Origin: Candidatus Eiseniibacteriota bacterium
Lineage (GTDB): Bacteria > Eisenbacteria > RBG-16-71-46 > CAIMUX01
Assembly: GCA_903844735.1 (NCBI GenBank)
Contig: CAIMUX010000087.1
Coordinates: forward strand, 4,738 to 68,737
Length of the DNA: 64,000 nucleotides
Reading direction: 5' to 3'
Shown: positions 1,694 to 57,559 of the stretch, piece after piece
Numbering within the stretch: the stretch's first letter is position 1
Layout of the letters: each line of letters begins with the position of its first letter
Program-made: the position numbers and the translations under genes
The notes under the pieces: generated by a model
Told to the model about the DNA's origin: nothing
The model's database searches: none
The model's input: the letters and a program-made list of their open reading frames with translations, nothing else

Positions 1694-1944
1694 TGGCCTC
1701 ACAGGTCCGACGTCGGGACCCCTTCCCACCAGACAGTGAATCCAATACCGAATGTCATGCCGCCAAGGGCGCGATAGTCATGCTCCAACCACTTCTGACG
1801 AACGTGGCTGAGGGCCGGCTTACGGCCGCGCCCGTCCAGAAAGAATCGATCTTCCAGCTCTCGAGGTCGCGGCGACCTCGAGTTTCCCTCTCGATCTCCG
1901 CGAGTGTTCCCTGCGCGGTTGTCAGATCCATGGATCCTCCTGGC

Positions 1945-4917: not shown

Positions 4918-5020
4918 CGCATCCCTCCAGTTTCGATCTCCCTGCCTCGATCGGAGACATAGAGTAGAAAACGGCCCGATGAGAGCAGCAGGAAGAGAAG
5001 TAGGGCGGCTGACGCAAGCC

Positions 5021-6918: not shown

Positions 6919-6943
6919 GAGAGATGCGCCTCCCCAACCATTG

Positions 6944-8044: not shown

Positions 8045-8052
8045 CGGCCGCG

Positions 8053-12380: not shown

Positions 12381-13732
12381 GGTGCTCGGTGTTGTTTCTG
12401 GTGACGATGCTGTCAGCGGCGACCGCAACCGGAACCCCGCGAGCGTTTGCGGATCCGTCCGCCGGCGATACTCGAAGACCTGACGCAACGGCGCCGGCGC
12501 CCGGCACTCATGCTTCGGACGCCGGCGTGACTGTAGGCTCGTCGAGCGTGATCGACCCGGTCCCCCGCCCGATCACGCTGGAGGAAGCTGTGTCGATGGC
12601 GCGGCAAAACGCTGTGGCGGTCATCAAGGCCGCCGGGCAGAAGCAAACCAGCGACGCGGAGGTCCGCTCGGCCTACGCCGCTTTCTTACCGAGTGTCAGC
12701 CTCTCGGCGGGAACGCGTCAGTCGACCAGTGTGGCCGTCGGTTCGATCACGCTGTTCGAAGGGGGTCGGCGGATCTTCGAGCTGCAGCAGGCCCGGACGC
12801 GGCAGGCCTCGGCCGTGATCGACGGAACGACCCAAGCGTTTGTCGCAACCCTGGCGGCCAAGCAGCAGTTCTTCAACGTGCTGCAGGCGCGAGAGACCGA
12901 GATGGCGGCCAAGGCCCAGCTCGCTCAGGCCGAACAGCAGGGCCGCGTCGCCAATGCGAGGGTTCGGGCCAGAACGGCGACCCGTTCCGACTCCCTGCGG
13001 GCCGAGATCCAGGTACGCAGCGCCCGAATTGCGGTACAGAACGCGCGCGATGCAGCGAGCATGGCCGGCTCAGCGCTGACGCGCATCGTCGGTTCGCCGG
13101 ACCCGGTGACCGCCACAGAGGGTGACTCGCTCGGGTCTGCCGGCCTGGCGGTTACGGACGAGTCGCTTCGCGTCTTGGCCGAGAGTGGCCCGGATGTTCG
13201 CCAGGCGGAACAGGCGTTGTCGGCAGCCCAGACCGCGCGGCGCAGCGCGTGGGTCGGATACCTCCCGTCGGTGACCGCCTCCTACTCGCGTGGCACAGGC
13301 GGTGGGAGTGGGATCGCCTGGCAGGACGGAAGCGGTTTCTCCCCCACGGGTTCGATGCGGCTGTCGCTTTCGCTTCCCCTCTTCAATCAACTCCAACGGG
13401 AGGGACAGATCACGCAGGCGGAGGTCGCGGTCCACAACGCCGAAGCATCCCTGCGCGACGCGCGCCTGTCGGCCCGGGAGGTGATCTTCCAGTTGCTGGT
13501 CGCCTTCCGGTCGGCGCAGGACCGCGCCGCCTCGCAGGAACTCAATGTCGAAACCGCCGTGGAGGATCTCCGCGTGCAACAACTGCGCTACGCCGAAGGC
13601 GCGTCAACACTGCTCGATCTGCTCACCTCGCAGACCCAACTGGACCAGGCGCGCCGCGACTTGATCCAGGCCCGCTACGACCGGCGGGTGGTCAAGGCAC
13701 AGATCGAGGCGCTGGTGGGACGAGATCTCTAA
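12377..13732 (+). CDS. TolC-like outer membrane efflux protein (OEP family)
   Basis: 451 aa with signal [19 protein letters not shown]. Two coiled-coil/beta repeat halves typical of outer membrane factors ([15 protein letters not shown]..., [35 protein letters not shown]). 4-nt overlaps with both neighbours. Confidence 0.7.
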
Positions 13733-13743
13733 TGGAGGATGTG

Positions 13744-15201
13744 ATGCGACATAACAGCAAACGGCGACACCTGGTGCTATTCCTGGCCGGCCTCACGGTC
13801 GTGCCGGTCACGATCACTCTGGGGTGTGGCCTTCTGAAGCGCGGCGGGAAACAGCCCTCCGTCACCACGGAAGCCGCGGCCCGGCGTGACATCGCCGTGA
13901 CGATCGAGGCGACCGGCGTCGTCGAACCGGTGGACCTTGTGGAGGTGAAGTCCAAGGCATCGGGGCAGATTCTGCGGATGCCGGTGGAAGTCGGCTCCAG
14001 GGTGCGCGTCGGCGACCTGCTCGCGCAGATCGACACGGTGGACGTGCAGAACCAGTATGAACAGGCCTTCGCCGCCGAACGGGCTGCTCGGGCGAAGGTG
14101 GATGTCTCAGCCGCGCAGTTGAAACGGGCCGAGGAGTTGTTCGCCCAGCAGGTGATCACGGTGGTGGAGCACGAGAGTTCGACCCTGGACTACGCCAACG
14201 CGGAGTCGCAGCTCGTGAAAGCCCGCACCGATTTCGACACGGCGCGGCAGCGCCGGGCGGACGCCACCGTGCGGGCGCCCGTTGCGGGGACAGTCCTCCA
14301 ACAGCTCGTCTCGGCCGGACAGGTCATCGTTTCGGCCACCTCCTCGGTGAGCGGTGGCACGGCCCTGTTGCGCATGGCCGACTTGGCGCGGATCCGCCTG
14401 CGCGCTCTCGTCAGCGAGACCGACATCGGAAGCGTCAAGCCGGGCCAGGTCGCCACCGTCTCGATGGAAGCGTTCCCCCAGAGGTCGTTCCAAGGCACGG
14501 TCGAGAAGGTCGAGCCGCAGGCCGTGGTGCAGCAATCGGTCACCATGTTTCCGGTGCTCATCTCCATCACGAACGAGGATGGACTCCTCCTGCCCGGCAT
14601 GAACGGCGAGGTTTCGATGCAGGTCGATCATCGCGACAACGTTCTCGCCGTTCCTCTCGATGCGGTGCGCACGGTGCGCGAACTGCCTTCCGTCGCGGCG
14701 GCCCTCGGCATGAACGCCGACTCGGTGCAGGCGCAGTTGACGCGGCGTGTCGGAAGTCGCCGGATTCGGCCGCCTGGAACACCGGGAGATGCGGACTCGA
14801 CCCGCCGGCATGGCCCCGAAGGGTGGGGCGGCCGGAGTCGCGGCGCGGGCATGAACTCTCCGCCCAACGGTGGCCCCCCCACGGGTGCCGGCGGGACAGT
14901 GTCCGGGAACGGATCCCGCGGTGCTTCCGTTGAGGGCGCGAGCCGCGCTCAAGCGATCCTGATCAAGACGGCAAAGGGAATCGAGCCGCGGCTGGTCCGG
15001 CTCGGGCTCAGCGACTTTGATTATGCGGAGGTTCTGGGCGGCCTCGACGAAGGAGACCAGGTGGTGCTCCTGGGAGTCGTCGAGCAACAGACCAAGCGAA
15101 CGGATGAACAGAGCCAGATCCGGCAGCGCTTGAGCGGCGGTACGCCCGGCGCGCTGCCGGGCTCCGGCGGCGGCGGCCGGCCCTCCGGAGGAGGGCACTG
15201 A
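13744..15201 (+). CDS. Efflux membrane-fusion (periplasmic adaptor, HlyD/MacA family) protein with Gly-rich C-terminal tail
   Basis: GGAGGA RBS then ATG at 13744 (MRHNSKRRHLVLFLAGLTVVPVTI...), followed by a biotinyl/lipoyl-like and beta-barrel region (VTIEATGVVEPVDLVEVKSKASGQILRMPVEVGSRVRVGDLLAQID). The long six-frame ORF from 13249 is rejected because it overlaps the TolC-like gene. Confidence 0.75.
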   Translation: MRHNSKRRHLVLFLAGLTVVPVTITLGCGLLKRGGKQPSVTTEAAARRDIAVTIEATGVVEPVDLVEVKSKASGQILRMPVEVGSRVRVGDLLAQIDTVDVQNQYEQAFAAERAARAKVDVSAAQLKRAEELFAQQVITVVEHESSTLDYANAESQLVKARTDFDTARQRRADATVRAPVAGTVLQQLVSAGQVIVSATSSVSGGTALLRMADLARIRLRALVSETDIGSVKPGQVATVSMEAFPQRSFQGTVEKVEPQAVVQQSVTMFPVLISITNEDGLLLPGMNGEVSMQVDHRDNVLAVPLDAVRTVRELPSVAAALGMNADSVQAQLTRRVGSRRIRPPGTPGDADSTRRHGPEGWGGRSRGAGMNSPPNGGPPTGAGGTVSGNGSRGASVEGASRAQAILIKTAKGIEPRLVRLGLSDFDYAEVLGGLDEGDQVVLLGVVEQQTKRTDEQSQIRQRLSGGTPGALPGSGGGGRPSGGGH

Positions 15202-40931: not shown

Positions 40932-43838
40932 CTACTCTCCCCCCTCGAACTCCGAATCCCGGAACCCAAGCGTCCTCGCATTCTCTCGAATCGTCCGCTG
41001 GAGATTCTCGTCAAAGCCGGCCGCCGACTCGGCATGGATCTCGACCGTGATCTGCACGTTCACTCCGGGCCGCTCGGTGAAGCGGATCACGAGTTCATCC
41101 ACGAGGTCAGCGAACCTCTTCTTGGCCTGGACGGCATCCAGACTGATGGTCCCGTAGAAGCGTCGCTGTACCGGTGCCTTGGCACCTCCGCCCGTGCGGC
41201 CCGCGCCTCCGCCGGGGCCGAGGCCCCCTCCGCCAGTCCCGCGACCAGTGCCACCGGGGGGGTCCGCGATGACCCCTTCGCCGCCCCCGCCCCCGACCGT
41301 CCCGCCGGGCTTACCCGTGGATGCCGCCGCCTCCGCCGCCGCATACTCCCGCGCCACCCTCGGCTCGATGATCAGCAGCGAGCCATCGAACACCGGCGCG
41401 GGTAGCTTCCCAAAGCTGAACCCCGTGTACTTCCCCGCCTCCTTGCCATACGCAAACCCAAAGAAGTCCGTACTCCCCGCCCCCGCCACCAGCGCCCGCC
41501 GAAACACCTCCTCGTCCTTCAGCCGCGGCAGATACAGGTACTGGCATGTCTTCTGCCACACCTCCAGCGCCCCGACCTCGACGACCTCCGCCTTCCAGAA
41601 CCAGGTCGTCAGCATCTTGGCGAGGTGAATTGGCGCCCACTCACTGATCACGAGCTCGTTCTCTCTGAGCACCAGCGCCAGTTCCTTCCCGAGGTCAGGA
41701 CTGCTGGGGTTGAGCGGGAACGCCTCCCACTTGATCTCGGAGACACCGCCGACTCCCGTGCCCTCGAATGCGGGTGTCCCCCCGGAGGCGGCCTTGACCC
41801 CTTTGGGAGGCAGTGCTTCCTGCATCGGCGCGAGCAGCCACCTGTAGACCTCGCGAACCATCCGGGTCAGTGTTTCGCGGGCCTGCGCCAACGCGGCCTC
41901 GGCGTTCCTTGCCATCAGGTTGTCCAGCACGATCCGGTTGTCCCGGTAGTCATTCACGATCGACTGCCACGCCAGCAGCGTCCGGACCAGATCCTTGAGT
42001 CGGGACACACTGTCGTAATCAGCCGCCAGGAACAGAAGCCGGTTCTGCTTCTGTCGCGGCTGTTCGCCCCGGTGTTTCAGGATCTCCGCGGCGCCTTGAA
42101 TCGCAAGGCCGTGGCCGGCGCGGTTGTAGGCTGCCTCGGTCGGCAAGACCACGAGTCGGAGCGACCAATCATCTGGGATATCCGCGGCGGGGGTGAACAC
42201 ATGGACACCACCGAACAAGCCGGGGGTGAGACTCTTCTGAAGACGCTCCCGGATGACGGGAAGGATGTCCTCCCGGTCCTGGAAGCGCTTCTTCCGCTCC
42301 TCCATTTCGCGGCGGAGGTTCGGCCGGGTGTCGAACCAGTATCGGTCGTTGGCCTGGTTGAGATAGTGCAGCCGGTCGACGAGCCGGTTGAGTGCGTCCT
42401 CGTAGAGGCTGAGCTGCTGGTCGGGCTGCAAGCAGCCAAGCAGGACTTGCCCCACCTCCAGGCCGCGCACTCTTTGTCCCGTGGTCGTGGGGGCACTCCC
42501 GAGGAAGATCGCTCGCGCCGCCCGCCGGCACCCCTGCACGCTCCCCAGGCGCGGTTCCTTGTTTTCGATCTCGGTGGTCTCGGCCCGCTCGCCGTCGATG
42601 TCGCTCTCCACCACCGGGTCCCAGCCCGGCGGCAGGTAGTAGATCACCTCGTTGCGCACGTCGGCGTCGTAGAGGGGCAGGTTGGCCGGGAGGATCAGCA
42701 GGTCGTTGTTCCCATCCTTCCAGAGCCGGTAGATCACCTTGGCCATGAGCTTCAGGACACCGCGTGTGCGCTGGAACGACTCGAGCGTCGACCAGTCCTC
42801 GTACAACCGCCGAAACACTTCTGGGTGGATCGGATAGGCGTCGCGCATCCGAGACGTGTACCGGCTGTCCTGGGTCTCCTGGGGCAGGCTGGGGTTGGCG
42901 ACGTAGAGCTCCGCGAAGGCGCGACAGACGGCATCCGCGGCCGCGGCATCGTTCACCTTCGTGAAGAGACGGCGGCGGACGATCTCGAACGCCTCCTCGG
43001 TTCCGACCGGCTTCCAGAGCGCCTGGACGCGGCCGAAGTAATGCTCCAGGGCGTTCAGTGCTCCCTGTCCGCGTTGGCTTCCGGCCTCGCGGTCCGACTC
43101 GGGAAGTGAGGCAAGCAGCACCGCGCTCGGAACCATCTTCAGCGCTTCGGTAAGCGCCTGGATGAACGAGAGGTTCGAGTCGTAGGTCCCGCCCGCGTAC
43201 GACTTCCCCTCCTCGAATTGCCGGATGTAGGCGACAAGTTCGTCCACGAGGACGACGCACGGGGCGTGGCCGCCGAGCAGCCGGGCCAGGACATCCTTGC
43301 CAGGCGACGTGCCGCTCTCGTCGGCCTCGCGGACCAGGGCGTACCCAGACTCGCCCCCGAGCTGCCAAGCCAGCTCTCCCCAGAGTGTGCGCACGGTGAG
43401 CCCGTCGCGCTTGCGGGGCATGTTCGGGGCCAACTGGTTGCCATCGAGGACGGCGATCGTGGCCCGCGGCAGCTCGGTGATCTTCGCGGCGTCGAGGATG
43501 GGCGGGATGCCGGCAAGGTCGGCGGAACTTGCTGTCCCCTTCGCCAGGTGGTAGACCGCCAGCATGGTGTGCGTCTTGCCGCCGCCGAAGGCGGTCTGAA
43601 GCTGGATCACCGGGTCCCCGCCGCGTCCGGCGATCCGCTTCACGACCGAGTCGAGGAGGAGTTTCATCCCCTCGGTGATGAAGGTGCGCTGGTAGAAGAG
43701 CACCGGGTCTTGGTACTCGGGTGTGGCGGTGCCGTCGTGGACGCGCGAGAGGTCGGCGGCGAACTCGGCTTGCTGGAAGGTGCCCTTCAGGACATCCTCG
43801 TGGGGGATGGCGACTTCGCGCCAGGGTTTCAGGGTCAT
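40932..43838 (-). CDS. DUF499-family P-loop ATPase (defence system component; BrxC/PglY-related)
   Basis: Internal Met [36 protein letters not shown] matches my recollection of conserved DUF499 N-termini. Walker [19 protein letters not shown]. About 969 aa from 43838, and the ATG overlaps the stop of the upstream gene (43835). The 160-aa G/R-rich N-terminal extension in the six-frame ORF is rejected. Confidence 0.65.
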
Positions 43839-45391
43839 GGGTTGGATCCCTTTCGTTGAACTGCGGGGTGCCTCGTCTGGCTGGCCAAGGTCTTCTGACC
43901 CTTCTTCGTCAGGCGGTACTTCTGCAGGCGGCTGTTGGGCTTGTCGGGGACCGTGAACTCGACACGTGCGCCTGTCAGGAGCGTCTTCAGCACAACCTTG
44001 AGCTGTCCAGAGACCCGTTCCTGCCCCAGTTGCTTCGAGATGACCGCGATGGGAAGGGCACCGTTGCTCAACAGAGCCAGAACGCGGTCTTCCAGTGACT
44101 GGTACTGGACTGGTACTGGACTGGTACTGGACTCCGGCTGTGTCTCCGGCCGTGACCCTACCCCCGACTCCACCTTTGCCCCTACCTCGGCACCAGCCGT
44201 CTCCCCCACGCGCACCCGGAAGGTCACCACCGCCGCCCCGGTGATCTCCTCGAACTTCGGCTGAGCGATCCCCGCGTCGCGGCACATTTCGACCACGCGG
44301 TTCGTCCCGCGCCCCCACTTCTCGATGAGGCCGGTTCGATGGAAGACGTCCGCAATCAGTGGGTTCCGCTGGACCGACAGGTGGTTCTGCGTCAGGGATC
44401 GGGGCGTGATGCCCTTGGGAAAACCTCCCGCGCTCCAGACCTCCACGCGATCGTCGAAGATCGCCAGCGAAACCGCGCCCCCCGCGATGGAGTAGTCGCG
44501 GTGGATGAGGGCGTTGACCAGGATCTCCCGCATGGCGTCCGGTGGGATGAGCAGCGTTTCCACCCGCCTCATTTGGCCCGGGACGATCCTCGCGGGCATC
44601 GGGAAATGGCGCTGGCAGAAGATCTCTGCTTCCTCCAAGAGCTTGAATGCCGGGCCGCGCACCTGGCGCTGGTCAAGGAACTCGGTCTTGGTCGTCCCCC
44701 GGAAGCGGGCCATGCGAAGCTCGCACTGCGGGTAGTCCGGCATGAACGTCTTGCCAAAGAGGACCACCGCGCCCTGGAGGATGCGGCCATCCGTGCGGAG
44801 ACCCAGCCGGGTCAGCACATCGGGAAGGCTCCGGCCCACGGGTCCGACCAGACGTCCGACCGAGCGGGCGATGTCCACGATGCGGAAGACCTCATCGCGG
44901 TCGATGCCCTTGATGGCCATCCCCTCGGCGGGCTCGTTTTCCCAGCGCCGCTTCGTGTGGGCGCGGGCGAGGAGGAGATTCTCGTACTTCTCCTGGGACA
45001 TCTTGCGCGTGGTGCTGGCTACCCGTTCATACGGGCGACCATCGAAGGTGAACGGAGCCGAATCCAGGGTCTTCGTGGTGCGAAGAATCAGAATCTCCCG
45101 TCCGTTCTCCAACGACAGCCGTTCTATCGGGAGATCCACCGGCGGCTCGAAGCGCTCAAACGCCTGCGCGATATCGCGGAGCGTCTGATCCGAGACCTGC
45201 TGCCCCTCGGGCTGACCGTCGGGACGGACCCCGAAGAGCACCATCCCGCCCGAGCCGTTCAGGAAGGCGCAGATGGTCTGCAAGCCCTCGCGCAGTTCGC
45301 CGGTCGAGCGCTTGATCTCCAGGTTCGGACCCTCTCCCGGTTTCAGGAGCCGGGCGAGGTCGTTCTCACTCGCGGGGATCTTCGGGATCAT
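43835..45391 (-). CDS. AlbA_2 (Schlafen-like 'divergent AAA') + HATPase_c_4 + C-terminal wHTH protein, paralog 1 (embedded in defence locus)
   Basis: 518 aa. N-terminal [44 protein letters not shown] (AlbA_2 family), then a GHKL-like region ([14 protein letters not shown]...GRGTNRV). The linker is encoded by a 12-nt x3 tandem repeat ([11 protein letters not shown]). The C-terminal HTH is diverged from paralog 2. Confidence 0.6.
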
Positions 45392-45486
45392 GCAGCCTCC
45401 ACTTCAGCCGCGGACGGTCACGACCACAGTGTCCGTGGTCTCAATGCATTCCACCGCGGCGATGCCCGGTCTGTCGATCCAGCTCG

Positions 45487-46971
45487 TCACGGGACCACCT
45501 CCCAGCGTCCGCCCTTGTCGGGCCCGATTCGGCGGACTCGATTCTGCCCCTGAAGTGTCCTGAGATTGCGTTCAATCGTCCTGGCACTGACGCCGATAGC
45601 CGCGGCCAGATCGGCGATGGTGGCATCCGGGTGGTCGGCCAGCATGGAGAGAATGCGGCCCGGGGTCTTCTTGGCCGTTTTCTCCGACATTTCCTCCGAC
45701 GTTTTCTCCGACGTTTTCTCCGACCTCTTCTCCCGACCCTCCTCTGGTAGGTTCCCGGGGCGCGCCGGAACGATCGGGGCCCGAAACGTCACCACGACCC
45801 AACCTTCGCGCTCCTCGAACAGCGGCGGGGGAACGCCGTGAGCCAGGCACTCCGCGATCACCCGGTTCGTACCACGCCCCCAAACCTCCACCGCCCCTGT
45901 CCGGTGAAAGGCTTCGGCGATCAGCGGATTGCGAAGTTCGGATCCGTGCGACGTCGATAGCTGTTCCACCGTCACGCCGGTCGGCAGGCGGCCGTAGCTG
46001 CGGATTTCGACCCGGTCGTCAAAGACGACGATGGCGACATGACCTCCGTAGTAGGAATAGTCCCGGTGCATGACGGCGTTGAGCAGGATCTCCCGCAGGG
46101 CGTTCGGAGGAACCGGAAAGCGATCTTCCCGGAAGATCTGGCCCTCGGGAAAACGCGCCCCCAGAGGGAGCGTTCGCTCGAGGAAAGCCATGCCCTCGCG
46201 GACCATGGCGAAGGCATGGATGTGTTCCTGGCGATTGTCCACGATCTCGCCGGTGATCTCCGTGCCACGGAAACGCCCCATCTTCAGGTGGCACTGGGGA
46301 CAGTCCGACAGGAAGCTCTTCCCGTAGAGAACAAGGGCGGCCTGCGTGAGAACCCCGCCCACCCGCAATCCCAGCCGGTCCAAGATGTCGCCCGCGTCTC
46401 TGCTTGTGTCTGCGGAGATCCGGCTCTGCTGAACGGCCAGGTCCCGAGTGCGCAGAATCTCCTCGCGGTCCAAGTCGTCGAGCGTCAGCCCCTCCGAAGG
46501 GAGGTTTTCCCACCGTCGTTTGGCGTGTCCCCGCTCCAGGAGAAGCCGTTCATACGTCTCCTGTGACATCTTGCGCGTGGTGCTGGCGATCCGCTCATAG
46601 GGACGGCCATCGAAGGTGAACGGAACCGAATTCGAAGCCCCTGCAACGCGGAGAATCAGGACCTCCCGTCCGTTCTTCAGAGACAACCGCTCTATCGGGA
46701 GACTCACCGGCGGCTCGAACCGTTCGAGCGCCTGCGCGATGTCGCGCAGCGTCTGATCGGAAACCTGCTGTCCCTCGGGCTGACCATCGGGACGGACTCC
46801 GAAGAGCACGATCCCGCCCAGACCGTTCAGAAACGCACAGATCGTCTGCAGGCCCTCGCGTAACTCGCCCGTCGAGCGCTTGATCTCCAGGCTGGGCCCC
46901 TCTCCCGGTTTCAGGAGCAGGGCGAGCTCCTCCTCGCTCGCGGGGGATCTCGGGATCAAGGCAACCTCCAC
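45487..46971 (-). CDS. AlbA_2 (Schlafen-like) + HATPase_c_4 + wHTH protein, paralog 2
   Basis: 494 aa. The first roughly 300 aa are near-identical to paralog 1 at protein and DNA level. The linker is encoded by a 15-nt tandem repeat (EKRSEKTSEKTSEEMSEKTAKK). C-terminal wHTH (ADLAAAIGVSARTIERNLRTLQ). Confidence 0.6.
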   Translation of the reverse strand: MEVALIPRSPASEEELALLLKPGEGPSLEIKRSTGELREGLQTICAFLNGLGGIVLFGVRPDGQPEGQQVSDQTLRDIAQALERFEPPVSLPIERLSLKNGREVLILRVAGASNSVPFTFDGRPYERIASTTRKMSQETYERLLLERGHAKRRWENLPSEGLTLDDLDREEILRTRDLAVQQSRISADTSRDAGDILDRLGLRVGGVLTQAALVLYGKSFLSDCPQCHLKMGRFRGTEITGEIVDNRQEHIHAFAMVREGMAFLERTLPLGARFPEGQIFREDRFPVPPNALREILLNAVMHRDYSYYGGHVAIVVFDDRVEIRSYGRLPTGVTVEQLSTSHGSELRNPLIAEAFHRTGAVEVWGRGTNRVIAECLAHGVPPPLFEEREGWVVVTFRAPIVPARPGNLPEEGREKRSEKTSEKTSEEMSEKTAKKTPGRILSMLADHPDATIADLAAAIGVSARTIERNLRTLQGQNRVRRIGPDKGGRWEVVP

Positions 46972-46989
46972 TTCAGCACGGGATCCTCC

Positions 46990-49881
46990 TCAGATATCCA
47001 GATCTGTCTGCGTCCCCACCTGCCCCGCCCGATGCGAAGCCGCCTCAATCGCCGCCCATGTCGTAATCAGCTCGTTGCACGCCCGCGCATCCTCCGCCCA
47101 CCCCTTGCGCTCACATAGCGTATACAGCCGATACGCCAACTGCCGAATCGGCTCCATCCGCCCCGGCATCCGCGCCACCAGCGCCCCCGCCGCCATCTCT
47201 CCACCGGAGGTCAGCGCCCGCAGAAGGTGGTGCATCGCCTCCCAGATCGGCGTGCGCTGATCGTGCTCCGGCGACCAGTCGGTCGGGTACTCGGCGGGCC
47301 GCAACAGACGCACGGAACCCCGGCCCGAGGCGACGACCCCGGCTTGTACAACCCCTTCGACGCTGGTCCCCTTGGCGCGGGCGAGCACGTCGGCCTCGCC
47401 GAACTTTCCCTCGTCCCAGGCGTGCTCCTCGAACCAGTGCAGGCAGAACCTCGTGTCGGCGTCGAAGTCGTCCTCCGAGAAGAAGCGGTTTATGAGCTGC
47501 AGTGCGGTGCGCACGCTCATCGGCGTACCGTCGGCCTCCAGGACCGCGGTGTACTTCGAGAAGACGGCCATGCCCGGGCCGATGATCGCCTGGGAGAGGT
47601 CCACCGGCGCCACCGGCGAGTACTCGGCCCCGCGCGTCATGTCATCGAGGGCCTCAGGGAGAGCGGCATTGAGCTCGCGAAGGAACTCCCGCCGGGAGAC
47701 CGAAGGGGCGGTAGCCTCGCGACGGCGGCAGACGATGATGATGCTGGAGGCAAGGACGTTGGTGCCCGAGCCAATCATGCGGTTGCCTAGTTCTGTCCGC
47801 ATCGGCCAAGTGCCGCTTACGGAGAAACCAGCGCGAATCACCGCTTCGAGGAAGGTTTCCCAGCCAGTACTGGCAGTCCCTTCGGTGCATTCGGTTTCCG
47901 ATTGCTTGAACGCGTAGTAGATCGTGACCGGAAACGCTCGATGGGCGTGCTCGGCCAGGCGGTGCATCGCCTGCGTCATGCCGTCGAGGAAGAAGGTTTC
48001 GGCCTTCTCCTTGCTGCCGTGGCGATAGGGCGTGGCTACCAGCTCCTCGGCCTTGGGTACCACCAGCGTGGCGAAGAGGTCCGGAAAGACGGGCTTCAAC
48101 GACCGGCGCAGCCAGACGTAGAAGAAGTCCGACAGGTCGGCGTAGCCGATGTTGTCGTAGTAGGGTGGGTCGGTAGAGATGACCGAGCCATCGGTGATTG
48201 TCTGGGACTGCGCGTCTGCCTGAACCGCATATCCCGCCAGCGTAGCAGGCAACTGGTCTACCACACGCATCATGTTCTTGAGAGAGACGAGCGGATCACC
48301 GGCCATGTCACCGAAGGCATTGGCCTCGGAGTAGTCCCAAACCATCGGCAGCGCTTGCCGTCCGAATGTTGCGATGGACTGATCCATAGTGGTCTTCCAG
48401 CGACAAAGTGATGACTGGGCATCGGACATCTTGCTGATCGCCATCCCGAGATACACCCCCACCGCATCCGAGTAAGCAGTGGCGCCGGTGCCGCCAGCGT
48501 CGAGACTCTTCCCGTCATCGGCGAGGCCAGCGGCAAGGGCGTCGTGCCTCACACGCTCGCGCGCTTCCGAGACCAGATCGGCGAAGGTCGTCAGCGCCAC
48601 GAGCTGACGTGGGGTGAAGAGGTCGGCAAACGTCATTAGACCGTAGTTCGGCGTCTTGAAGTCACGCGGGTTCACGGGCAAAGCGACTTCCGGTCTCCAC
48701 TCCGGCTTCGCCGTGCGCGCCACCGCCTCCATCTCCAAGGTTGGCGGCAGATAGATCCGCCCGCGTCCGCCCTCTGCGACGATGGCCATGAGTCGTGCGC
48801 CCATTTGGCCAGACTTGCCCGCCTCGCGGATGTGATCGTAGGGCACCGGGACACCCGACATTAGGCAACGGAAGGCGGCGCGCTTGCCAGCCGTGGTGCC
48901 GAGCTTCGCAGCCTCGGCGTCCTTCGGGCTGCCCACCTTCACTGTGAAGCGGTAGCCGCCGCCGCCGACTACTGGCTCGACATACGTTTCCTTGCCCGCC
49001 TTCGTGGAGAGCATGAAAGTGGAGACAAGCGGCACGTCGATCTCCGAGTACGCTGGGTTGGGACTCTTCACAGTCCGCGCCCAGAGCCACGCGATGACGT
49101 TGAGCTTCTGGCCAACCAGCGGTTTCAGATCCGGCCGCGGATTGCCCGGATCGCGGACCATCTCCGCGGTAATCGCGACCTTCGGGTACAGGTGGCCGAT
49201 CCGCTTCTCGGCCTCGCCCCACATGAAACCGCCGTAGTACCGCACATCCTCTGCCAAACCCTGCGCGCCGCGCCAGTTCCTCGCGACAAGTGATTTCTCA
49301 CTACGGGCCGCTGGGTTCACCGGCCGTCTCCCGGCGAACTTCGGCGGGATCTCGATCATCGCCTTGTTGATCAGCACTGCCACCGGGTTCAGGTCGCTGG
49401 CGTGGGCTTCCAGCCCCAGCCGCTGCGCCTCCAGCGGCAGCGCACCTCCTCCCGCGAACGGATCGTGGAACGCCGGAAGGTGGTCCGGATCGAACAGCGT
49501 AGCGGCTTGCGGATGGTCGCGGTTCAGGTGGCAGGTCTCCCGCCAGCTCCGGCGGATCTCCGCGCGGGCTTCCTCCAGCACCTCCTCGTTCGTAGTGTTC
49601 TCCCAAAGCACGAGCTTGCGGATGATTCCGAAAAGCCGTTCCCGCTCGCTAGCGGCCTCCTTCTTGTTGACTCCGCGGCCCAGACCACGTTCGTAGCCAG
49701 GGTCGTTCACCATCTGCGCGAAGATCACGGCGCGAGCCGCAGCGAGGGGCCGCCGCGCCCACCAGAGGTGCAGCGTCGAAGGATGCCCGTGACGGATCGA
49801 CTTTTCCTTCGCAGCAGCGACATTGATGTCATCCAGCGGCAGGGCGACCTCGATGAGCTTCTTGGGGCACTTGACGGTCAT
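46990..49881 (-). CDS. DUF1156-domain DNA methyltransferase (DPPY-type N6-adenine/N4-cytosine)
   Basis: Internal Met [52 protein letters not shown], with [11 protein letters not shown] recalled as DUF1156. AdoMet motif [13 protein letters not shown] and catalytic [21 protein letters not shown]. The start ATG overlaps the stop of the CBS-HEPN gene (49878-49881). Confidence 0.7.
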
Positions 49882-50723
49882 GGATTCCTTTCTCGCTGGG
49901 ACGACTCTGCCCGCGCGAGCAGTTCGTCGCGCGTCCCGCACTCCGACTTCAGAATGTCGAACAGGCTGATCCACTTCTCCGCCGCCAGCACTCGGGCGAT
50001 GCACGCATCAAAACCGAAGTTGTTCGCATGAGCCAGGCCGTTTCTCAACTTCTCGATGCCGACTAGCTCCCGCTTGAACCCCGTCACTTGCTCTCTGCCC
50101 CATAGTGCCAGGCGGCCGACGACCTTGCGCTTGTCGCAGAACTCCGACGCCTCTATGAGATCTACATCCTCGGAATTAGCTCCCAGCTTCTCCCAACGCT
50201 CCACAAGATCACTTTCGCGTTTCTTAGTAAGAGTCGATAACCACTTCTTGCTTGGCGATGGATACACGAGCCGCATCACGTCTGCCATCTGCATTTCCAG
50301 GTGCGTGATCACGGCAAACGCCAGGAGGCGCACGGGGAGCTTCTGCAAGTCACTTCGGGTTACGATTCCACATGCACCCTGGCCAGTGTGCACTAACGCG
50401 TACGGAGTGTTTCCGGCTTCACGAAGGTAGGTGATTAGAGGCGTCTCCGCAGCGACCAAGCGAACTTCACGAAACGCCTTCATCTGTGAACCTGCGTCGC
50501 CGTCGTCGCTCGTGGTCTTCAGATGCAGCACACCTACAATCTTACGGCCACGCTTCACCGGAACATGGTCGATTACCTGCGGAGACATACTTCGGCGAAC
50601 CTCTCCAACCAGATCGTCGGCCTTGCAGGTCACGAGACCAAATAACGCAATGTGGCGGACATGGAGACCGGTTTCAAGCCCTCTGAGCGTCTCCTCACAC
50701 ACGCTGCTACTTGCCGCCCTCAT
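49878..50723 (-). CDS. CBS-pair + HEPN-domain protein (embedded in defence locus)
   Basis: ATG 50723 is preceded by AGGAGG at -7. Two CBS-like units ([20 protein letters not shown]; [20 protein letters not shown]). The C-terminal [10 protein letters not shown] fits the HEPN R-x4-H motif. Confidence 0.55.
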
Positions 50724-50797
50724 GACACAGCCTCCTATTCATCAACAAGCATCGGTCGGCATTCTCCGGACAAGCCCGTGGACCGGTGCTGCCCGCT

Positions 50798-51280
50798 TCA
50801 TTCGTCATCATCAGGGTCAGGTCTTTCCAGGTCGATCATGAATCCCTTCGACACATCCTGGGCGATGATCGCACCCGCCACGTCGCCGATCCGAGGCGGC
50901 GCGGCCGCATCCGGGTACTCTGCAAGGATCCTGGCATGGAGAGCGTCCGCCCCGGCCCGATCCAAGCTCAGAAAGTACCCGGCGCCCATGCACATGGGAC
51001 AGATGGCATACGAGTTATCGGCCGGCTGATCCAGGAGACCGTTCCCCTTGCAGTAGAAACACCTCGTGCGGCACTCCGCATACAGACGGTCAGCAAGGGG
51101 GCGATGAGGCCCGACAGGCCGGAGGCCATAGATATTCTGGTAGACGGCCATGGACTCGAGTCGATCGTACTGCCACCCCACGTACTCGCCCGGCCTGCCA
51201 CACGTCGAACACAATTCCGACGTGGTCAGAATCTCTCCGTCTTCGGCACAGCACGTGTACCGCCACCTCTTCATCGGCAT
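50798..51280 (-). CDS. Cys-rich zinc-ribbon protein (embedded in defence locus)
   Basis: 160 aa with paired CxxC motifs (CSTC, C-x3-C-x2-C in [18 protein letters not shown]). Its start overlaps the helicase gene end by 10 nt. Confidence 0.5.
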
Positions 51281-54200
51281 CGGTAACCCTCCGCCCGCCC
51301 GAGCAGCTCATCCAGATCCAAGTTGATGCTGGTCACCGCCCAATCCGGCTCCTGCGTAAACGGCCGGCGCACATAGAACGGCCCCTCGCACCGCTCCTCG
51401 TCAACCAGCACGATCGCTAACAGAAACTTCTCCGCCTGATTGAGCCCGTAGATGATCTCATTGCGCGACACCGTGATCGTCGTCTGTCCTTTGGCCCGTC
51501 CCTTGACCTCGAGATGCCGACACTCCGCCAGCCGCCCCTCTGTCGCCCTCAACGTGCTCGTCACGTCCCACCCGCACTTCTGCGCCGAGACATCCACCAC
51601 CTCGTGTCCGAGGGCGCGTTCAGCGGCCATCACCGTCTCCATGGCGAGCTGCTCGATCCGCGCGCGGGCGAGCGCATCGACGGCCCAGCGCGTGTCGCAG
51701 CGGCGCTGGGCCAGAAGCCCGGCCGGGATGACGAGCGCGCCACCCGCGACCACCGGCGTGGCCGAGATGACGTGGCGCATCGCCTGCAGCTCCTTCGTCC
51801 GCGACTCCAGCCGCACGGTCAGCTCGTCGATCGTCCGACGGGCGTTCTCCAGCGACAGGCGCACGTCGCGCCCGGCGGCCAGGTCGTCCTTCAGCTTGAT
51901 ATACCGGTCGGAGCACGTGTTGATCTCGCGGACCAGCCGCTCGTGGACGGCGGCCAGGGTCTTGTCCACGTGCCGCTCGCGCCGTCCGCGCACTTCGTCG
52001 AAGTGGTCCGGCACGAGGTGGGCCGAGGCGTGGGACAGCGCCACCTGCTCTAAGTCCCGGGTGATCCAGGGCGCCTCGAGGATGTCCTCCACCGATCGCA
52101 GGTCAAACGCGCCGATCGGTTCCAGATCAAGATGCGGCGCCCAGCCGGCGTCGATCGAGTTCCCCTCGGCGTCGATCGCCACGAACTGCATCCGCCGCGA
52201 AACCTCCCGCGACGGGTCGTGCCCTTCTTTCACGGAGTGATCGAGGATGAACATCACCCGCGGCACGACACCCGGGTCGTGGGGGTCCACCAGTACCGCC
52301 CCCTGCTTGAGCTTGTTGCGGTGTTGCTCGAGGGCGAGGTCGGTGACCGCATGCATCAGGGGGTGGCCGGGGTGGAGCAGCTCCGCCCGTGGAGCCCCCG
52401 CCCGATCGAGGAGCCGCACATACTCCTTCTCGAAGCAGACTCGCTCGTACCGGCGCAAGACCGGGTTGAGGCTGCCCCGGTCGCGGCCGGTGATCTGCCG
52501 GTCCCGCTCGCGGATCACGGCCGGGACGTGGGTGATCTCCCAGCGACCGGTCTCCCGGGGACGCAGCTCGCCTCCCAGGCCCTGGAACACCTTGGCAAAG
52601 AACGAGCGGATGAAGAACGGCTGGAGCTTGCGGGCCTCGGCCTTCTCCATCTCCTCCTTGATCGCGAAGAGCCGTTCTTCGTCGATCACCTCGTCGCAAA
52701 GGGCGTTGCGGTGGATGATCGCCCGGAGGTGCTCGGTGTCGAGGACCCCTTCCACCCGGCGCAGGAGCCGGGCGCGGATCTCGGGATCGTCGCCGTAGCG
52801 GACCGCCTCGATCAGGAGTTCGCGCAGGCTCTTCTCCTCGAAGATCTCGCCGAGGATGTCGAAGACCCGGCCGCCGAGCGCCTGACGCTCAACCTCCAGC
52901 TTGTCGAAGAGCCGCTGGAAGACATCTCCCTCCCGCGTCTCGTTGGCCACGAGATTCCATAGGTGGCAGACCTCGGTCTGGCCGATGCGGTGGATGCGGC
53001 CGAACCGCTGCTCCAGCCGGTTGGGGTTCCACGGCAAGTCATAGTTGACCATCAGATTGGCGTTCTGGAGGTTCACGCCCTCGCCCGCGGCGTCGGTGGC
53101 CACGAGGATGCGTGCGGCCGGGTCGTTGCGGAAGATCTCCTGAACCTTGCGCCGCTCCTCGCGCTTCACGCCGCCGTGGATGGTGACGATCGCTTCCGGT
53201 GTGCCGAGCAGTCCGCCGATCTTCTCCTCGAGGTAGTGGATGGTGTCGCGGTGCTCGGAGAAGATGATTAGCTTCCGCTGCCGCCCTTCGGCGTCGCGCA
53301 TCTGTGGGGTGTTCTGGAGCAGCCGCGACAGCTCCTCCCACTTGCGGTCCTGACCGCAGTGGACGAGCACCCGGGCCTGCTCCTCCAGGTGTTCCAGGAT
53401 GAGGATCTCCGCCTCCAGCTCCTGGATCGTCTCGGCGGCGGTGGCGTCGTCCACCAGCGCCGACTCGATCGTCTCCTGCTCCTCGGCGTTCAGGTCATCC
53501 GTGTCGTCGGGTACCGACCACTGCGGCATCTGTGCTAAGACGCTGTCGCCCCGCCGGCCCAGCTTCTCCTCCTCGACCTTCCGCTTGAGCCGGTGGTGGC
53601 GGCGGCGGAGCGACTGGTAGATTGCCTCGGGACTTGAGGCCAGGCGGCGCTGCAGCGAGGTCAGCGCGAAGCCGACCGACCCCTTCCGCTTGCCGTCCGC
53701 CATCTGGTCGACCTTCTTCCACTCCTCCTTCACGTACCCGGTCACCGCCTGGTAGAGCGCGGCTTCGAGGTCGGAGAGCTTGTAGTTGACGGTGTAGGCC
53801 CGCCGCTCCGGGAACAGCGGCGTCCCATCGAACCGCAGCATCTCTTCCTTGACCATCCGCCGCATCAGGTCGCTGACGTCCACCTTGTGCGCCCCGTCCC
53901 TCGGCTTGCCGTAGAAGCGGTCTGTGTCGAGCAGCGACAGGAAGAGCTGGAAGTCCTCCTCCTTGCCGTTGTGCGGCGTCGCGGTCATGAGCAGCAGGTG
54001 GCGGGTGGTCGAGCCGAGCAACTCCCCCAGGTGAAAGCGCTGGGTCTTGTTGATCTTGTTGCCGTAGTAGGTGGCAGCCAGCTTGTGCGCCTCGTCCACG
54101 ACCACGAGATCCCAGCGCGTCTGGGCCAGCTTCTCGTGCAGGTCCTCGTTCCGCGAGAGCTGGTCCAAGCGGGCGATCACCAGCTCGTGATCGTCGAACG

Positions 54201-54783
54201 GGTTGCCCGTGCGGGACTGCTCGACCTGCTCCCGCGTGAAGACCAAAAACGAGAGGCCGAACTTCTCATACATCTCGTCCTGCCACTGCTCGACCAAGCT
54301 GCCGGGGGCCACGATCAACACCCGCCGGGCGTCCGCCCGCATGATCAGCTCGCGGATGTAGAGGCCCGCCATGATCGTCTTGCCGGCGCCGGGGTCGTCC
54401 GCCAGGACCAGCCGCAGCGGTTGTCGGGGCAGCATTGTCTCGTAGACGGCCGTGATCTGGTGGGGCAGCGGCTCCACGTTCGAGGTGTGGATCGCCATCA
54501 TCGGGTCGAAGAGGTGGGCCAGGTTGATCCGGTAGGCCTCGGCGGCGAGCTTGAACTCCTCGCCGGGGGCGTCGAAGGCCCAGGGGCGTCCGGCCTCGGC
54601 CAGGGAGAGGTTGGGCTCGTCGGTGCGGAAGAGCATGCGTTCGAGGAGGCGACCGTCGGCGGTCTTGTAGTAGACCGTCAGGGCGTCGGGGCCGACGGGT
54701 TCGGTCGTGACGACCCGGACCACTAAGTTGGGCTCGATGCCCGTCACGGCGGCGTTCTTGCGGATGTCTTCGAGTTTCAGCAT
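51271..54783 (-). CDS. SNF2-family helicase with C-terminal PD-(D/E)xK-like (DUF3883-like) domain
   Basis: 1170 aa with SNF2_N motifs ([14 protein letters not shown]-like VVVDEAHKL), Helicase_C ([45 protein letters not shown]), and C-terminal [13 protein letters not shown]...CRHLEVKGR resembling a restriction-endonuclease-like fold. Confidence 0.75.
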
Positions 54784-55278: not shown

Positions 55279-55830
55279 GTGCACCTGCCAGTACGGAAAT
55301 TTACACTGTGAAATGCGATTCAGCATGAAGCGATGCCGAGTCCCCAAAGCCGGCCGCAGCGGAACAAAGACCAGTCTGACGATCTGCACCGGCGGGCGCA
55401 CCAGTGCAGACGGGAGTTCGGAAACCGGCCCGGGTGCGTGCACGATGGCGCGCACCGGTTCAAGAAGTCATCCGACCCTCTGCGAAATGGCGCGAACCGG
55501 TACGGAAATCCGCCCGAGGCTTTGCACAAATGCACCCACCGGTACAAAGATCCGTCGGTCCTCCGCACGATTGCAAACGCCGGTACAAAAAGGCGGCGGG
55601 CCTCCGGCTCGAATGCTTCTACCGGTGCGAAACGTCGCCCGACCCTCCGCACAAATGCGCGAGCCGGTAGAAAACTCGTCCGCTCCTGTGCACAAATGCG
55701 CCCGCCAGTACCAAAAGCTGTCCGACCCTCCGCACGATCGCTTCCCTCATTGCAGAAAGTCGCCCGACCCTCCGCGCGATCACTTCCGTCAGTGAAGAAA
55801 CCCGACCGACCCCGCGCGCTATCCCATTTC
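55279..55830. repeat. Array of about 12-13 degenerate 41-42 bp tandem repeats
   Basis: Units such as gcacaaatgcacccaccggtacaaagatccgtcggtcctcc / gcacaaatgcgcgagccggtagaaaactcgtccgctcctgt / gcacaaatgcgcccgccagtaccaaaagctgtccgaccctcc, with consensus about GCACAAATGCGCNNACCGGTACAAAANNNGTCCGACCCTCC. Open in several frames but with no RBS or start, and no unique spacers, so not CRISPR. Confidence 0.7.
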
Positions 55831-56093: not shown

Positions 56094-56181
56094 CACGAAA
56101 CCCCGAGGCATCGCCCCGGGGCTCGCGTTGACTGCCTGGCCGACCAAACCTGGTGGGCCAGCCATAGTGGCTCCCCGGGCA
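56094..56181. repeat. Copy C of the hairpin-containing repeat element, with a 3' end identical to the tRNA-Asn 3' end (att-like)
   Basis: cacgaaaccccgaggcatcgccccggggctcgcgttgactgcctggccgaccaaacctggtgggccagccatagtggctccccgggca. The last 16-17 nt (agtggctccccgggca, 56166-56181) are identical to 57483-57498 (reverse complement of the tRNA-Asn 3' end plus 2 flanking nt). Confidence 0.65.
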
Positions 56182-56502
56182 ATACCGTTCTCGAACCGTC
56201 CGGGCGTTCGTGGCAGCCCTCGTTGCGGCCTAACTGATTAGGGATCAATATGGTAAGTCTCACGCTTTGGCGATGACGCCTCCGGTACAGGGCGCGAGAG
56301 ACTGGTTCGCAACCGATCGCGCTCGGCTGACTTCGCGCACACAACCCCGTCCGGGGCGGAAACAGACCGAAGATCCACGGCACGGCTGCTCATCGCTAAC
56401 CGTGCATGCTGTAGTTCAGGACGGAGCAGCTCATGCCACCCTGCGGTCCACCGTGATAGACTAATAGATGCTGCCCCTGGGGGCGCAGGATTGGAGGCAC
56501 AG

Positions 56503-57177
56503 ATGCGATACGCACTTACGCTCAGTTTGGGCGCGCTGCTCCTGGCTGCCGGACCCGCCGATGCCGGCTTCCAGGAGAAGGGCTACATTCCCGGTTCCAT
56601 GCCGGAGAGCCCGAACCTCCCCAGCCCGCCGGTCATGGAGATGAACGGGGATTTCCTGAGCCCTGAGGTGGTAGTCGTCAACCCCCACGACGGCCAGATG
56701 GAAGTTGGAATGGTCGAGTTGGGATCGAGCCAGATCAGTTGGATTCACGTGATGAACTGGCCCGAGCCGCCGGATCGCATCTACTACCTCGACGTGGACG
56801 ATGATGGACTGCTGGACGCAATCATCTCGGCCACGTGCGGCGTGCTCATCGTCGGGTGGTCAGACGAAGCAAGCGCACTTGAGCCAGATGCCGGAGGAGC
56901 GGTGCGGCTCTCGGCCACGGTACGTTCCAACCCCGCCCATGACCAGTGCCAGGTCGCGTTCTCGAACTCTCGCTCCGGACCCGTCTCTGTGGTGCTCTTC
57001 GACTCCTCCGGGCGCCGCATTCGCGAGATCCTGTCCGGGTCTATGCCGCCCGGCTTCTACAGCCCCACCTGGGACGGCCGGGACGACTCCGGAACCGAGG
57101 TTTCCTCCGGGGTCTACTTCGCCAAGATCACGACATCCGAGGGGGAGCAGACGGCGAAGGTGGTGCTAACCAGATGA
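56503..57177 (+). CDS. Small secreted protein with T9SS-type C-terminal sorting domain
   Basis: Signal MRYALTLSLGALLLAAGPADA. The C-terminus VVLFDSSGRRIREILSGSMPPGFYSPTWDGRDDSGTEVSSGVYFAKI...VVLTR fits the Por secretion C-terminal domain pattern and is shared with the M14 peptidase CTD. Confidence 0.6.
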   Translation: MRYALTLSLGALLLAAGPADAGFQEKGYIPGSMPESPNLPSPPVMEMNGDFLSPEVVVVNPHDGQMEVGMVELGSSQISWIHVMNWPEPPDRIYYLDVDDDGLLDAIISATCGVLIVGWSDEASALEPDAGGAVRLSATVRSNPAHDQCQVAFSNSRSGPVSVVLFDSSGRRIREILSGSMPPGFYSPTWDGRDDSGTEVSSGVYFAKITTSEGEQTAKVVLTR

Positions 57178-57484: not shown

Positions 57485-57559
57485 TGGCTCCCCGGGCAGG
57501 ACTTGAACCTGCAACCCTGCGGTTAACAGCCGCATGCTCTACCATTGAGCTACCGAGGA
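57485..57559 (-). tRNA. tRNA-Asn (anticodon GUU), CCA encoded
   Basis: Reverse complement TCCTCGGTAGCTCAATGGTAGAGCATGCGGCTGTTAACCGCAGGGTTGCAGGTTCAAGTCCTGCCCGGGGAGCCA folds as a 75-nt cloverleaf with 7-bp acceptor stem, 4-bp D-stem, anticodon loop CTGTTAA and GTTCAAGT T-loop. Confidence 0.9.

Follow-up and report, generated by a model that had tools for sequence, protein, structure and literature searches.

A predicted Hma-type defense operon with four embedded genes in an uncultured bacterium of the Eisenbacteria

Hma loci are restriction-modification-like (R-M-like) systems built from a SNF2 helicase (HmaA), a DUF1156 methyltransferase (HmaB), and a DUF499 ATPase (HmaC), and their earliest description is credited in the literature to Anantharaman et al. 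2013. A 2026 study renamed these loci "DUF499-centred BREX-related systems" and described Type 1 as having an active restriction endonuclease (REase) and no HKD, DUF3780, or PglZ (PMC12839542). Genes are embedded in 62.7% of 1485 Hma systems, and seven of the nine embedded cassettes tested were able to defend, an approach termed "guilt-by-embedding"; the same work found Hma to be usually solitary (Payne et al., 10.1101/2024.01.29.577857). In a study of Halomonas, the embedding figure was 66.5%, and defense of E. coli against phage T4 by Halomonas HmaA needed both helicase and nickase activity (PMC11232893). Here, we analyzed a stretch of 64,000 nucleotides (nt), hereafter called the window, from Candidatus Eiseniibacteriota bacterium (contig CAIMUX010000087.1, positions 4,738 to 68,737), in which an Hma locus with four embedded genes lies at 40932-54783. 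The first-pass annotation of this DNA had stated that Hma often harbors embedded defense candidates, and the publications cited above confirm this; it had traced the prediction of the system to Makarova et al. 2011, in place of Anantharaman et al. 2013.

We regard it as likely that the locus is an Hma R-M-like operon in which a DNA-targeting core is combined with separate, mostly RNA-directed second-line effectors embedded between its genes. The DUF499/DUF1156/SNF2 core proposed by the annotation was borne out by full-length matches to the PADLOC models of HmaA (2056 bits, residues 1-1165/1170), HmaB (1698 bits, residues 2-962/963), and HmaC (1453 bits, residues 1-965/968), all with E = 0, and by conserved A-B-C synteny. 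The Pfam domains named by the annotation all matched as well. HmaA contained SNF2-rel_dom (66 bits), Helicase_C (86 bits), and NOV_C (68 bits), the last being the new Pfam name of DUF3883, and both Schlafen-like paralogs contained AlbA_2 and HATPase_c_4. The two domains on which the annotation had made its proposal depend scored 106 bits (DUF1156 in HmaB) and 113.7 bits (DUF499 in HmaC). HmaA also scored 419 bits against DrmD and 317 bits against BrxHII. NCBIfam gave only sub-threshold matches, to the sister "antiphage DUF499/DUF1156" models and to DrmD (382 against a cut-off of 610), and the locus was therefore assigned to Hma, not to DISARM or the PLD-helicase variant. PLD, DUF3780, and PglZ had no match in any of the seven proteins in Pfam or PADLOC. 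Judged by its sequence, the locus is a Type 1 DUF499-centred BREX-related (Hma) system, of the variant with a HEPN-less ATPase.

The catalytic motifs of the core were intact. HmaA carried the helicase motifs GAGKT (at 132) and DEAH (at 230), HmaB carried motif I DPFAGGG (at 140) and motif IV DPPY (at 571), and HmaC carried Walker A GGGKT (85-89) and Walker B VVLVDE (195-200). The statement of the annotation that the locus holds no classical restriction endonuclease was wrong, because HmaA ends in a PD-(D/E)xK domain (NOV_C) that matches the Halomonas nickase: all four catalytic residues (D1073, E1092-x-K1094, E1109) were present, and their spacing matched that of D1084/E1104/K1106/E1121 in Halomonas meridiana HmaA. 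By analogy with this homolog, HmaA is the predicted primary DNA-targeting effector, and its gene is under purifying selection (ratio of nonsynonymous to synonymous substitution rates, dN/dS, 0.075). HmaB is predicted to be a DUF1156-type N6-adenine DNA methyltransferase, the self-marking enzyme, and HmaC has the features of an ORC/Cdc6-like AAA+ ATPase. HmaC had no N-terminal HEPN fusion. In 57 of the 70 related loci compared, similarity to it broke off around residue 826 (of 968), so that the C-terminal region of about 140 amino acids (aa) (40932-41360) is hypervariable, a pattern that agrees with the hypervariable RRM-like C-terminal sensor domain reported for DUF499 ATPases (PMC12839542).

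The annotation had placed seven co-directional open reading frames (ORFs) in the locus, and each was found at the coordinates claimed (Table 1). Reading the junction letters directly, we found that the stop codon of hmaA overlaps the start of Znr (ATGCCGATGA), that of the CBS-HEPN gene overlaps the start of hmaB (ATGA), and that of Slfn2 overlaps the start of hmaC (ATGA). The remaining junctions measured about 30 nt, 95 nt, and 74 nt, the last of these lying between Znr and the CBS-HEPN gene, whose start is preceded by its own AGGAGG ribosome-binding site (RBS). Because stop and start codons overlap, the genes are probably coupled as an operon; all seven appear to form one transcription unit in which both the hmaA-hmaB and the hmaB-hmaC junctions are filled by cargo.

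Table 1. Coordinates of the genes of the locus and of the nearby tRNA gene (positions in the window)
Feature	Coordinates	Strand	Basis or remark
tRNA-Asn(GTT)	57485-57559	-	2.7 kb upstream of hmaA
hmaA	51271-54783	-	PADLOC HmaA; Pfam SNF2-rel_dom, Helicase_C, NOV_C
Znr, 160 aa	50798-51280	-	undescribed zinc-binding family
CBS-pair + HEPN protein, 281 aa	49878-50723	-	family alignment, AF2 model, hhalign to DS-11
hmaB	46990-49881	-	PADLOC HmaB; Pfam DUF1156
Slfn1	45487-46971	-	Pfam SLFN_AlbA_2, HATPase_c_4; MarR/HTH_24-type wHTH
Slfn2	43835-45391	-	Pfam SLFN_AlbA_2, HATPase_c_4; Fic-like_C-type wHTH tail
hmaC	40932-43838	-	PADLOC HmaC; Pfam DUF499

Related loci were collected by a scan with HmaB that took one genome per species and returned 592 relatives; the best 80 of the 592 (59-72% identity, from many bacterial phyla and one archaeon) were used for comparison. 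The proteins of the window were mapped onto these 80 loci, and gene order and junction lengths were measured. As the annotation had suggested might be seen, the core was constant, with an essentially invariant A-B-C order, and the inserts were variable. The hmaA-hmaB gap exceeded 300 nt in 50/62 loci and the hmaB-hmaC gap in 46/70, and both were shorter than 300 nt in only five of the 57 loci where both junctions could be measured. Some hmaB-hmaC "gaps" of about 515-570 nt held no separate gene but the HEPN domain by which HmaC is extended at its N-terminus. The inserts amounted to 141 same-strand ORFs, mostly of known defense families, including AAA_21/PtuA/HEC-01 (Septu-type ABC ATPases; 35), NYN/HEC-09 (8), HATPase_c_4 (8), GmrSD (7), and SLFN_AlbA_2 (6). 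Embedding in Hma is the published norm, and our junction survey reproduces the published picture. The four-gene cargo of the window was not found in the same combination in any of the 80 related loci. None of the four embedded proteins matched the HEC/PDC models of PADLOC, a library that detected HEC-09, HEC-01A, and PtuA in the related loci.

The closest described relative of the 281-aa protein is DS-11, a one-gene system of CBS and HEPN domains that defends E. coli and needs Y157 of the CBS part and R330/H335 of the HEPN part (Science 2026, PMC13092281). The annotation had named a CBS-HEPN protein. Pfam lent this little help, with no HEPN match and a CBS score of 23.7 bits (cut-off 24); the claim was carried instead by a conserved motif, the AlphaFold2 (AF2) model, and a profile alignment. 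The family comprised 39 proteins, 36 of which were aligned. The alignment showed a nearly invariant LRNxxAH together with E143 and D197-K198, and the motif R227-N-G-L-A-H232 was at least 90% conserved across the 36 members. The AF2 model (predicted local distance difference test, pLDDT, 90.4) was all-helical from about residue 129 onward, and its N-terminal half resembled AMP/ATP-bound CBS pairs (Foldseek, E about 1e-6). When the family profile was compared with DS-11 by hhalign, the probability was 95.4% (E 1.8e-8, 219 colinear columns), and R227/H232 aligned with R330/H335. The relationship is distant, because pairwise BLASTP was weak (E 0.013, 21% identity). Since the RNGLAH motif is conserved, the modeled N-terminal half has a CBS fold, and the profile aligns with DS-11, sequence and model together identify the protein as a CBS pair joined to a HEPN domain, which by analogy is predicted to be a ligand-gated RNase.

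Ten distinct genomic contexts of the CBS-HEPN family were read. The gene lay in the hmaA-hmaB gap in six of them, directly before hmaB in all five with a visible junction, and overlapped hmaB in four of these five. The other four contexts were outside Hma: beside a type I R-M system, near McrBC, beside a ResIII/RE_endonuc gene accompanied by an integrase, and in a neighborhood of mixed content. This occurrence both inside and outside Hma fits an autonomous module. No CBS-HEPN gene was present in the best 80 Hma loci of the HmaB scan. The small gene upstream of it differed between loci, encoding a 178-aa protein in locus L084 and a 208-aa NYN protein in locus L087, and in loci L090 and L093 the CBS-HEPN gene came straight after hmaA with no small gene between. 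Locus L087 (JGI Ga0598272_0001626, 47-14410) also carries a DUF4917 gene (345 aa) in the A-B junction, and its hmaB is followed by genes for an HTH_GRAD protein and an HSP70-like protein and then by a second DUF1156 gene.

Comparison of the window with a near-identical locus (L091) revealed how the CBS-HEPN gene varies. DNA identity was 84-99% over the 3' half of hmaA and Znr and 56-70% exactly over the CBS-HEPN ORF (49878-50723 versus L091:2272-3108), with one breakpoint within the spacer between Znr and CBS-HEPN and the other at the start of hmaB, where identity recovers. The two alleles shared 48% amino-acid identity, and their synonymous divergence (dS) was 1.13. These alignments suggest that the CBS-HEPN allele was swapped between near-identical loci, which fits an exchangeable defense cassette better than a co-evolving subunit. 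A role for CBS-HEPN in compensating for the HEPN-less HmaC was considered and rejected; three other loci carried both CBS-HEPN and a HEPN-fused HmaC.

The two tandem genes between hmaB and hmaC belong to a well-populated class. SLFN-GHKL-wHTH (wHTH, winged helix-turn-helix) is the commonest prokaryotic Schlafen form; the "Schlatpase" supradomain, named in the work on SLFN-pAgo, occurs in 60,692 of 103,533 SLFN proteins, and SLFN-HisK-wHTH proteins are a catalogued effector class closely linked to BREX and BREX-related (BR) loci in at least 1017 taxa. Slfn1 and Slfn2 both consisted of SLFN_AlbA_2 (PF04326, 62 bits), a GHKL HATPase_c_4 domain (PF13749, 82-83 bits), and a wHTH. The nuclease motif was E24x4E29xK31 in Slfn1 and E20x4E25xK27 in Slfn2 (strings EGPSLEIK and EGPNLEIK), and the E...N pair of the GHKL domain that serves Mg/γ-phosphate was E294/N298 and E289/N293, respectively (REILLNA and REILVNA). 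The paralogs were 55% identical overall, 82% in the SLFN domain, and 28-55% elsewhere; dS was 0.69 in the SLFN domain and 1.06-1.85 in the other domains, and the two wHTH tails were unrelated. The duplication was also visible as DNA repeats D1, D3, D5, and D6 and takes in the RBS and the start codon. While the annotated ORF of Slfn1 was confirmed, its start is most likely the TTG at 46959, giving 490 aa, because the RBS and start copied in the duplication line up there with the ATG of Slfn2 and gene callers chose the same TTG. Roughly 10 related Hma loci also carry a Slfn gene, none of them as a tandem pair. Slfn1-Slfn2 hetero-oligomers with two different DNA-binding tails may form, since the tandem paralogs have SLFN domains that are nearly identical but differ in their wHTH tails. 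Within Slfn1, a 12-nt periodic repeat (45660-45731) encodes a low-complexity (S/E/K/T)-rich linker between GHKL and wHTH that Slfn2 does not have.

The embedded genes might also be viewed as dedicated accessory or regulatory subunits of Hma and not as autonomous defense modules, the wHTH Schlatpases being transcriptional regulators or DNA sensors for hmaC and CBS-HEPN a nucleotide- or S-adenosylmethionine (SAM)-sensing partner of HmaB. Such roles would suit the translational coupling of CBS-HEPN with hmaB and of Slfn2 with hmaC, the wHTH ends of both paralogs, and the fact that all six Hma loci carrying CBS-HEPN have it in the A-B gap, just before hmaB wherever this could be seen (5/5); the transcription-related category and the published rejection of the tandem cassette, both given below, point the same way. 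However, the nuclease motifs of CBS-HEPN, Slfn1, and Slfn2 are intact, DS-11 works as a single gene, and CBS-HEPN relatives also reside away from Hma beside type I R-M, McrBC, and a ResIII nuclease. The 80 best-matching Hma loci all do without CBS-HEPN, and a Slfn gene occurs in only about 10 of them; moreover, replacement by a 48% identical allele between flanks of 84-99% identity is the behavior of a cassette. We therefore consider the accessory-subunit explanation unlikely and retain that of separate second-line effectors.

The fourth embedded protein, Znr, had no family in Pfam, NCBIfam, or PADLOC. In a word-indexed search it appeared to be an orphan, matching only its own cluster; this was overturned by an exhaustive HMMER search, in which 381 cluster representatives were found, 217 of them at E <= 1e-10. 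What the members share is an N-terminal domain, roughly 130 aa long, that follows the pattern MPxxxWxHxC...CxxCG...YGLKPxGPHR...CxxCxGxG...CxxCxGxG...PDA, with C27, G57, H59, C74, C77, C94, C97, and P123 invariant; 57 of the top 150 family members have C-terminal extensions. The annotation had called the protein a zinc ribbon; zinc binding is still predicted, but the actual motifs are two DnaJ-type CxxCxGxG motifs (at 74 and 94) and a CC...CxxC site. Znr is not a DnaJ cysteine-rich domain as defined by a PF00684 match above the gathering score and four CXXCXGXG repeats, of which it has two. The AF2 model was of high quality (pLDDT 95.1), and no solved structure in the PDB shares its fold. Purifying selection was evident (dN/dS 0.18), and Znr was 92% identical in L091, where it is still linked to hmaA. 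Two further ideas about Znr were rejected. For a phage derivation, no relative was found on viral contigs and the BFVD fold match was limited to the local CR-type zinc finger; homology with the 178-aa protein encoded at the corresponding place in L084 was dismissed after BLASTP (E 0.92).

Among 44 metagenomic loci with Znr family members, none contained Hma, CBS-HEPN, or Slfn genes. The neighborhoods were suggestive on about 19 long contigs or contexts. These included a PglX-PglZ-Znr arrangement and a series of an SF1 helicase, a Znr fusion, a UvrD/PD-(D/E)xK gene, and a type III methylase; Znr also occurred beside another UvrD/PD-(D/E)xK gene, two genes from PDC-S28, and near IS110 or PrimPol genes. 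Three times it was fused to a C-terminal GGDEF diguanylate-cyclase domain (L102:592-1968, L108:1046-2422, and L110:2080-3825), and the Znr module can therefore be an input domain for nucleotide signaling. In one context (L104), a SAM synthetase (MetK-like) gene at 5231-6373 stood immediately upstream of a Znr-family gene at 6479-7018 in the same orientation. As a lead from about 19 contexts, Znr may be a zinc-dependent sensor or adaptor module tied to DNA-translocase/nuclease immunity. In the window, we infer that it is most likely a protein- or nucleic-acid-binding sensor or adaptor traveling with hmaA.

Two further readings concern the hmaA-hmaB junction. Znr and CBS-HEPN could be one two-gene module, pairing either a sensor/antitoxin with an RNase toxin or a HEPN domain with the chaperone-like zinc-finger protein that gates it. 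In favor, the two genes lie side by side in one junction with 74 nt between them, a small gene of another kind directly precedes CBS-HEPN in the Hma loci L084 and L087, and the validated, Hma-embedded HEC-08 joins HEPN and zinc-finger-like domains in one protein. This pairing is nonetheless quite improbable, given that CBS-HEPN was found in 0/44 Znr-family loci, follows hmaA without a small gene in L090 and L093, and was swapped in L091 while the hmaA-linked, 92% identical Znr was kept; the 178-aa protein of L084 is unrelated to Znr. A second reading, which we hold to be rather unlikely, takes Znr as a new, structurally unprecedented defense-associated module and CBS-HEPN as an exchangeable guard at this junction. 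Znr would then be a module that recurs by HmaA, PglZ, UvrD-PD-(D/E)xK, PDC-S28, and type III methylase and that can be wired to a GGDEF output, and CBS-HEPN, swapped like a specificity cassette, might sense an adenosyl metabolite linked to the neighboring methylase, for instance SAM or ATP-derived signals.

The rest of the window was ordinary chromosomal DNA from a bacterium of about 65% G+C, with peptidases, an efflux system, a xanthine-dehydrogenase-type enzyme, and a type IX secretion system-type secreted protein as neighbors. The absence of a classical defense island around the locus agrees with Hma being usually solitary. This absence, together with the peptidase and secreted-protein genes nearby and the lack of an R-M-like effect of HmaB in one experimental study, could also suggest that the locus is not primarily antiviral but serves an epigenetic role or DNA maintenance, or is a relic without activity, its inserts being selfish passengers in a permissive hotspot. 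We judge this extremely improbable: no ORF is disrupted and the catalytic motifs are complete, hmaA and Znr are under purifying selection (dN/dS 0.075 and 0.18), antiphage activity has been measured for HmaA and seven Hma-embedded cassettes, Hma systems typically stand alone, and the inserts in relatives are overwhelmingly from defense families.

Some features outside the locus were also recorded. An exact 16-nt direct copy of the 3' end of the tRNA-Asn gene was present at 56166-56181, 1.3 kb away, as the only extra copy; the two bracket a FlgD_ig/Por_Secre_tail ORF (56491-57177, plus strand), and the arrangement looks like an att-site remnant. The tRNA-Asn gene as an integration site bounding an Hma island was rejected, as the single copy does not bracket the locus. 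Upstream of hmaA, degenerate 41-42-nt tandem repeats (55440-55823; about 7-9 copies, 61-81% alike) lie in an apparently non-coding stretch of 2.7 kb, which had no Rfam match and whose called ORFs had no family match. A scan of 39-58 kb with Rfam returned the tRNA only. At 1945-4917 (minus strand), a 990-aa protein with a C-terminal caspase domain (Peptidase_C14) and a large N-terminal region without a family match could be a conflict-system protein.

What was observed here is which genes are present, that their catalytic motifs are intact, their synteny, and where the cargo families occur; from families and published work on homologs we infer the core mechanism, as well as all biochemical activities and triggers. 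HmaB would methylate adenines in host DNA, HmaC, an ORC/Cdc6-like ATPase with a hypervariable C-terminal domain, would recognize the invader, and HmaA would translocate on DNA and nick it through its PD-(D/E)xK tail. As with DS-11, the activity of the CBS-HEPN RNase would probably be controlled by a ligand of the adenine-nucleotide type. In SLFN-pAgo (RzAgo), binding of ATP to the GHKL domain leads to a tetramer in which paired SLFN domains rebuild a bilobed nuclease that cleaves tRNA; by analogy, Slfn1 and Slfn2 may oligomerize on ATP binding into a tRNA-cleaving Schlafen nuclease. Apart from RzAgo, ATP-driven oligomerization and tRNA cleavage are documented only for other pSlfn fusions. Znr, traveling with hmaA, would most likely act as a sensor or adaptor.

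Several points weigh against the reading of a DNA-targeting core with RNA-directed effectors. Phage resistance conferred by Hma itself has been shown only with H. meridiana HmaA in E. coli; in that study hmaA defended by itself, and no modification-type protection of T4 by HmaB could be detected (PMC11232893), so the R-M-like logic of the core is still unproven. At the column of DS-11 Tyr157, the window protein has I51 (VIDHVPV), where most family members have F or Y (FDQIPV). Standalone SLFN-HisK-HTH proteins have no published defense phenotype, only DUF262- and Ig-fused pSlfns having protected in one published screen, and EggNOG places the Slfn family in category K, related to transcription. 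The tandem AlbA_2/HATPase_c_4 cassette was seen 46 times in BREX/DISARM/RM-I by the pipeline of Payne et al. and rejected as a candidate (10.1101/2024.01.29.577857). Finally, a promoter and terminator scan gave nothing beyond shuffled expectation, and none could be assigned.

Hma and the defense genes embedded within it are already published, and three of the four embedded genes belong to families described or validated in 2024-2026. The view of the annotation that the embedded genes are uncharacterized accordingly stood for Znr only; the Slfn pair falls into the catalogued Schlatpase class, and CBS-HEPN resembles DS-11, validated in 2026. New in detail are this combination of cargo genes, the preference of the CBS-HEPN family for one junction and the swapping of its alleles, the tandem, partly homogenized Schlatpase pair, and the undescribed zinc-binding family. 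The locus would be a natural example of layered immunity in one operon, with a DNA-targeting R-M-like core and three RNA-directed or unknown modules, and it comes from a high-GC bacterium that is uncultured and does not belong to the usual model phyla. The Schlatpase pair is a candidate for testing SLFN hetero-oligomerization, and the Znr family is linked to helicase-nuclease defense genes.

Compared with known systems, the locus is closest to Hma/Type-1 BR (Payne et al. 2021/2024; PMC12839542). It shares the three full-length core proteins, the A-B-C order, and genes embedded at both junctions, as well as a SNF2 helicase with a C-terminal REase predicted to be active, a DUF1156 methyltransferase with DPPY, and a DUF499 ATPase with a hypervariable C-terminus. 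In contrast, HmaC of the window lacks the N-terminal HEPN domain of about 56% of Type-1 taxa (PMC12839542), and the usual cargo of Septu/ABC-ATPase pairs, NYN, and GmrSD is absent. Type-3 BREX (BrxC/BrxXI/BrxHII) and DISARM DrmD have a homologous triad of ATPase, methylase, and SNF2 helicase, whereas the window lacks PglZ, BrxA, BrxB, BrxL, DrmA, DrmB, and DrmC.

The cargo can be compared in the same way. DS-11 (WP_000257686.1; DefensePredictor, PMC13092281) likewise has a CBS pair followed by a Swt1-like HEPN domain with RNxxxH, and both are single-gene units that also occur outside larger systems; DS-11 has an extra N-terminal region of about 120 aa, whereas the protein of the window shows Ile at the position of the essential Tyr157 and its family is strongly tied to the hmaA-hmaB junction. 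HEC-08 (Payne et al. 2024) is also a HEPN RNase with zinc-binding elements that is embedded in Hma and relies on the Rx4-6H histidine, but it is a single protein with a DUF3644-type HEPN, whereas the HEPN domain of the window is CBS-fused and its zinc protein is separate and of an unrelated family. The Schlatpase or pSlfn-HisKinase-HTH proteins (10.64898/2026.05.29.728809; 10.1101/2025.07.24.666596) share PF04326, PF13749, and a short HTH with the window pair, together with Ex4ExK and the GHKL E/N pair, and embedding in an R-M-like system has been reported for them in BREX, BR, and type I R-M. The window differs in having tandem paralogs with homogenized SLFN domains and unrelated HTH tails, and in carrying no pAgo, Ig, or DUF262 sensor domain.

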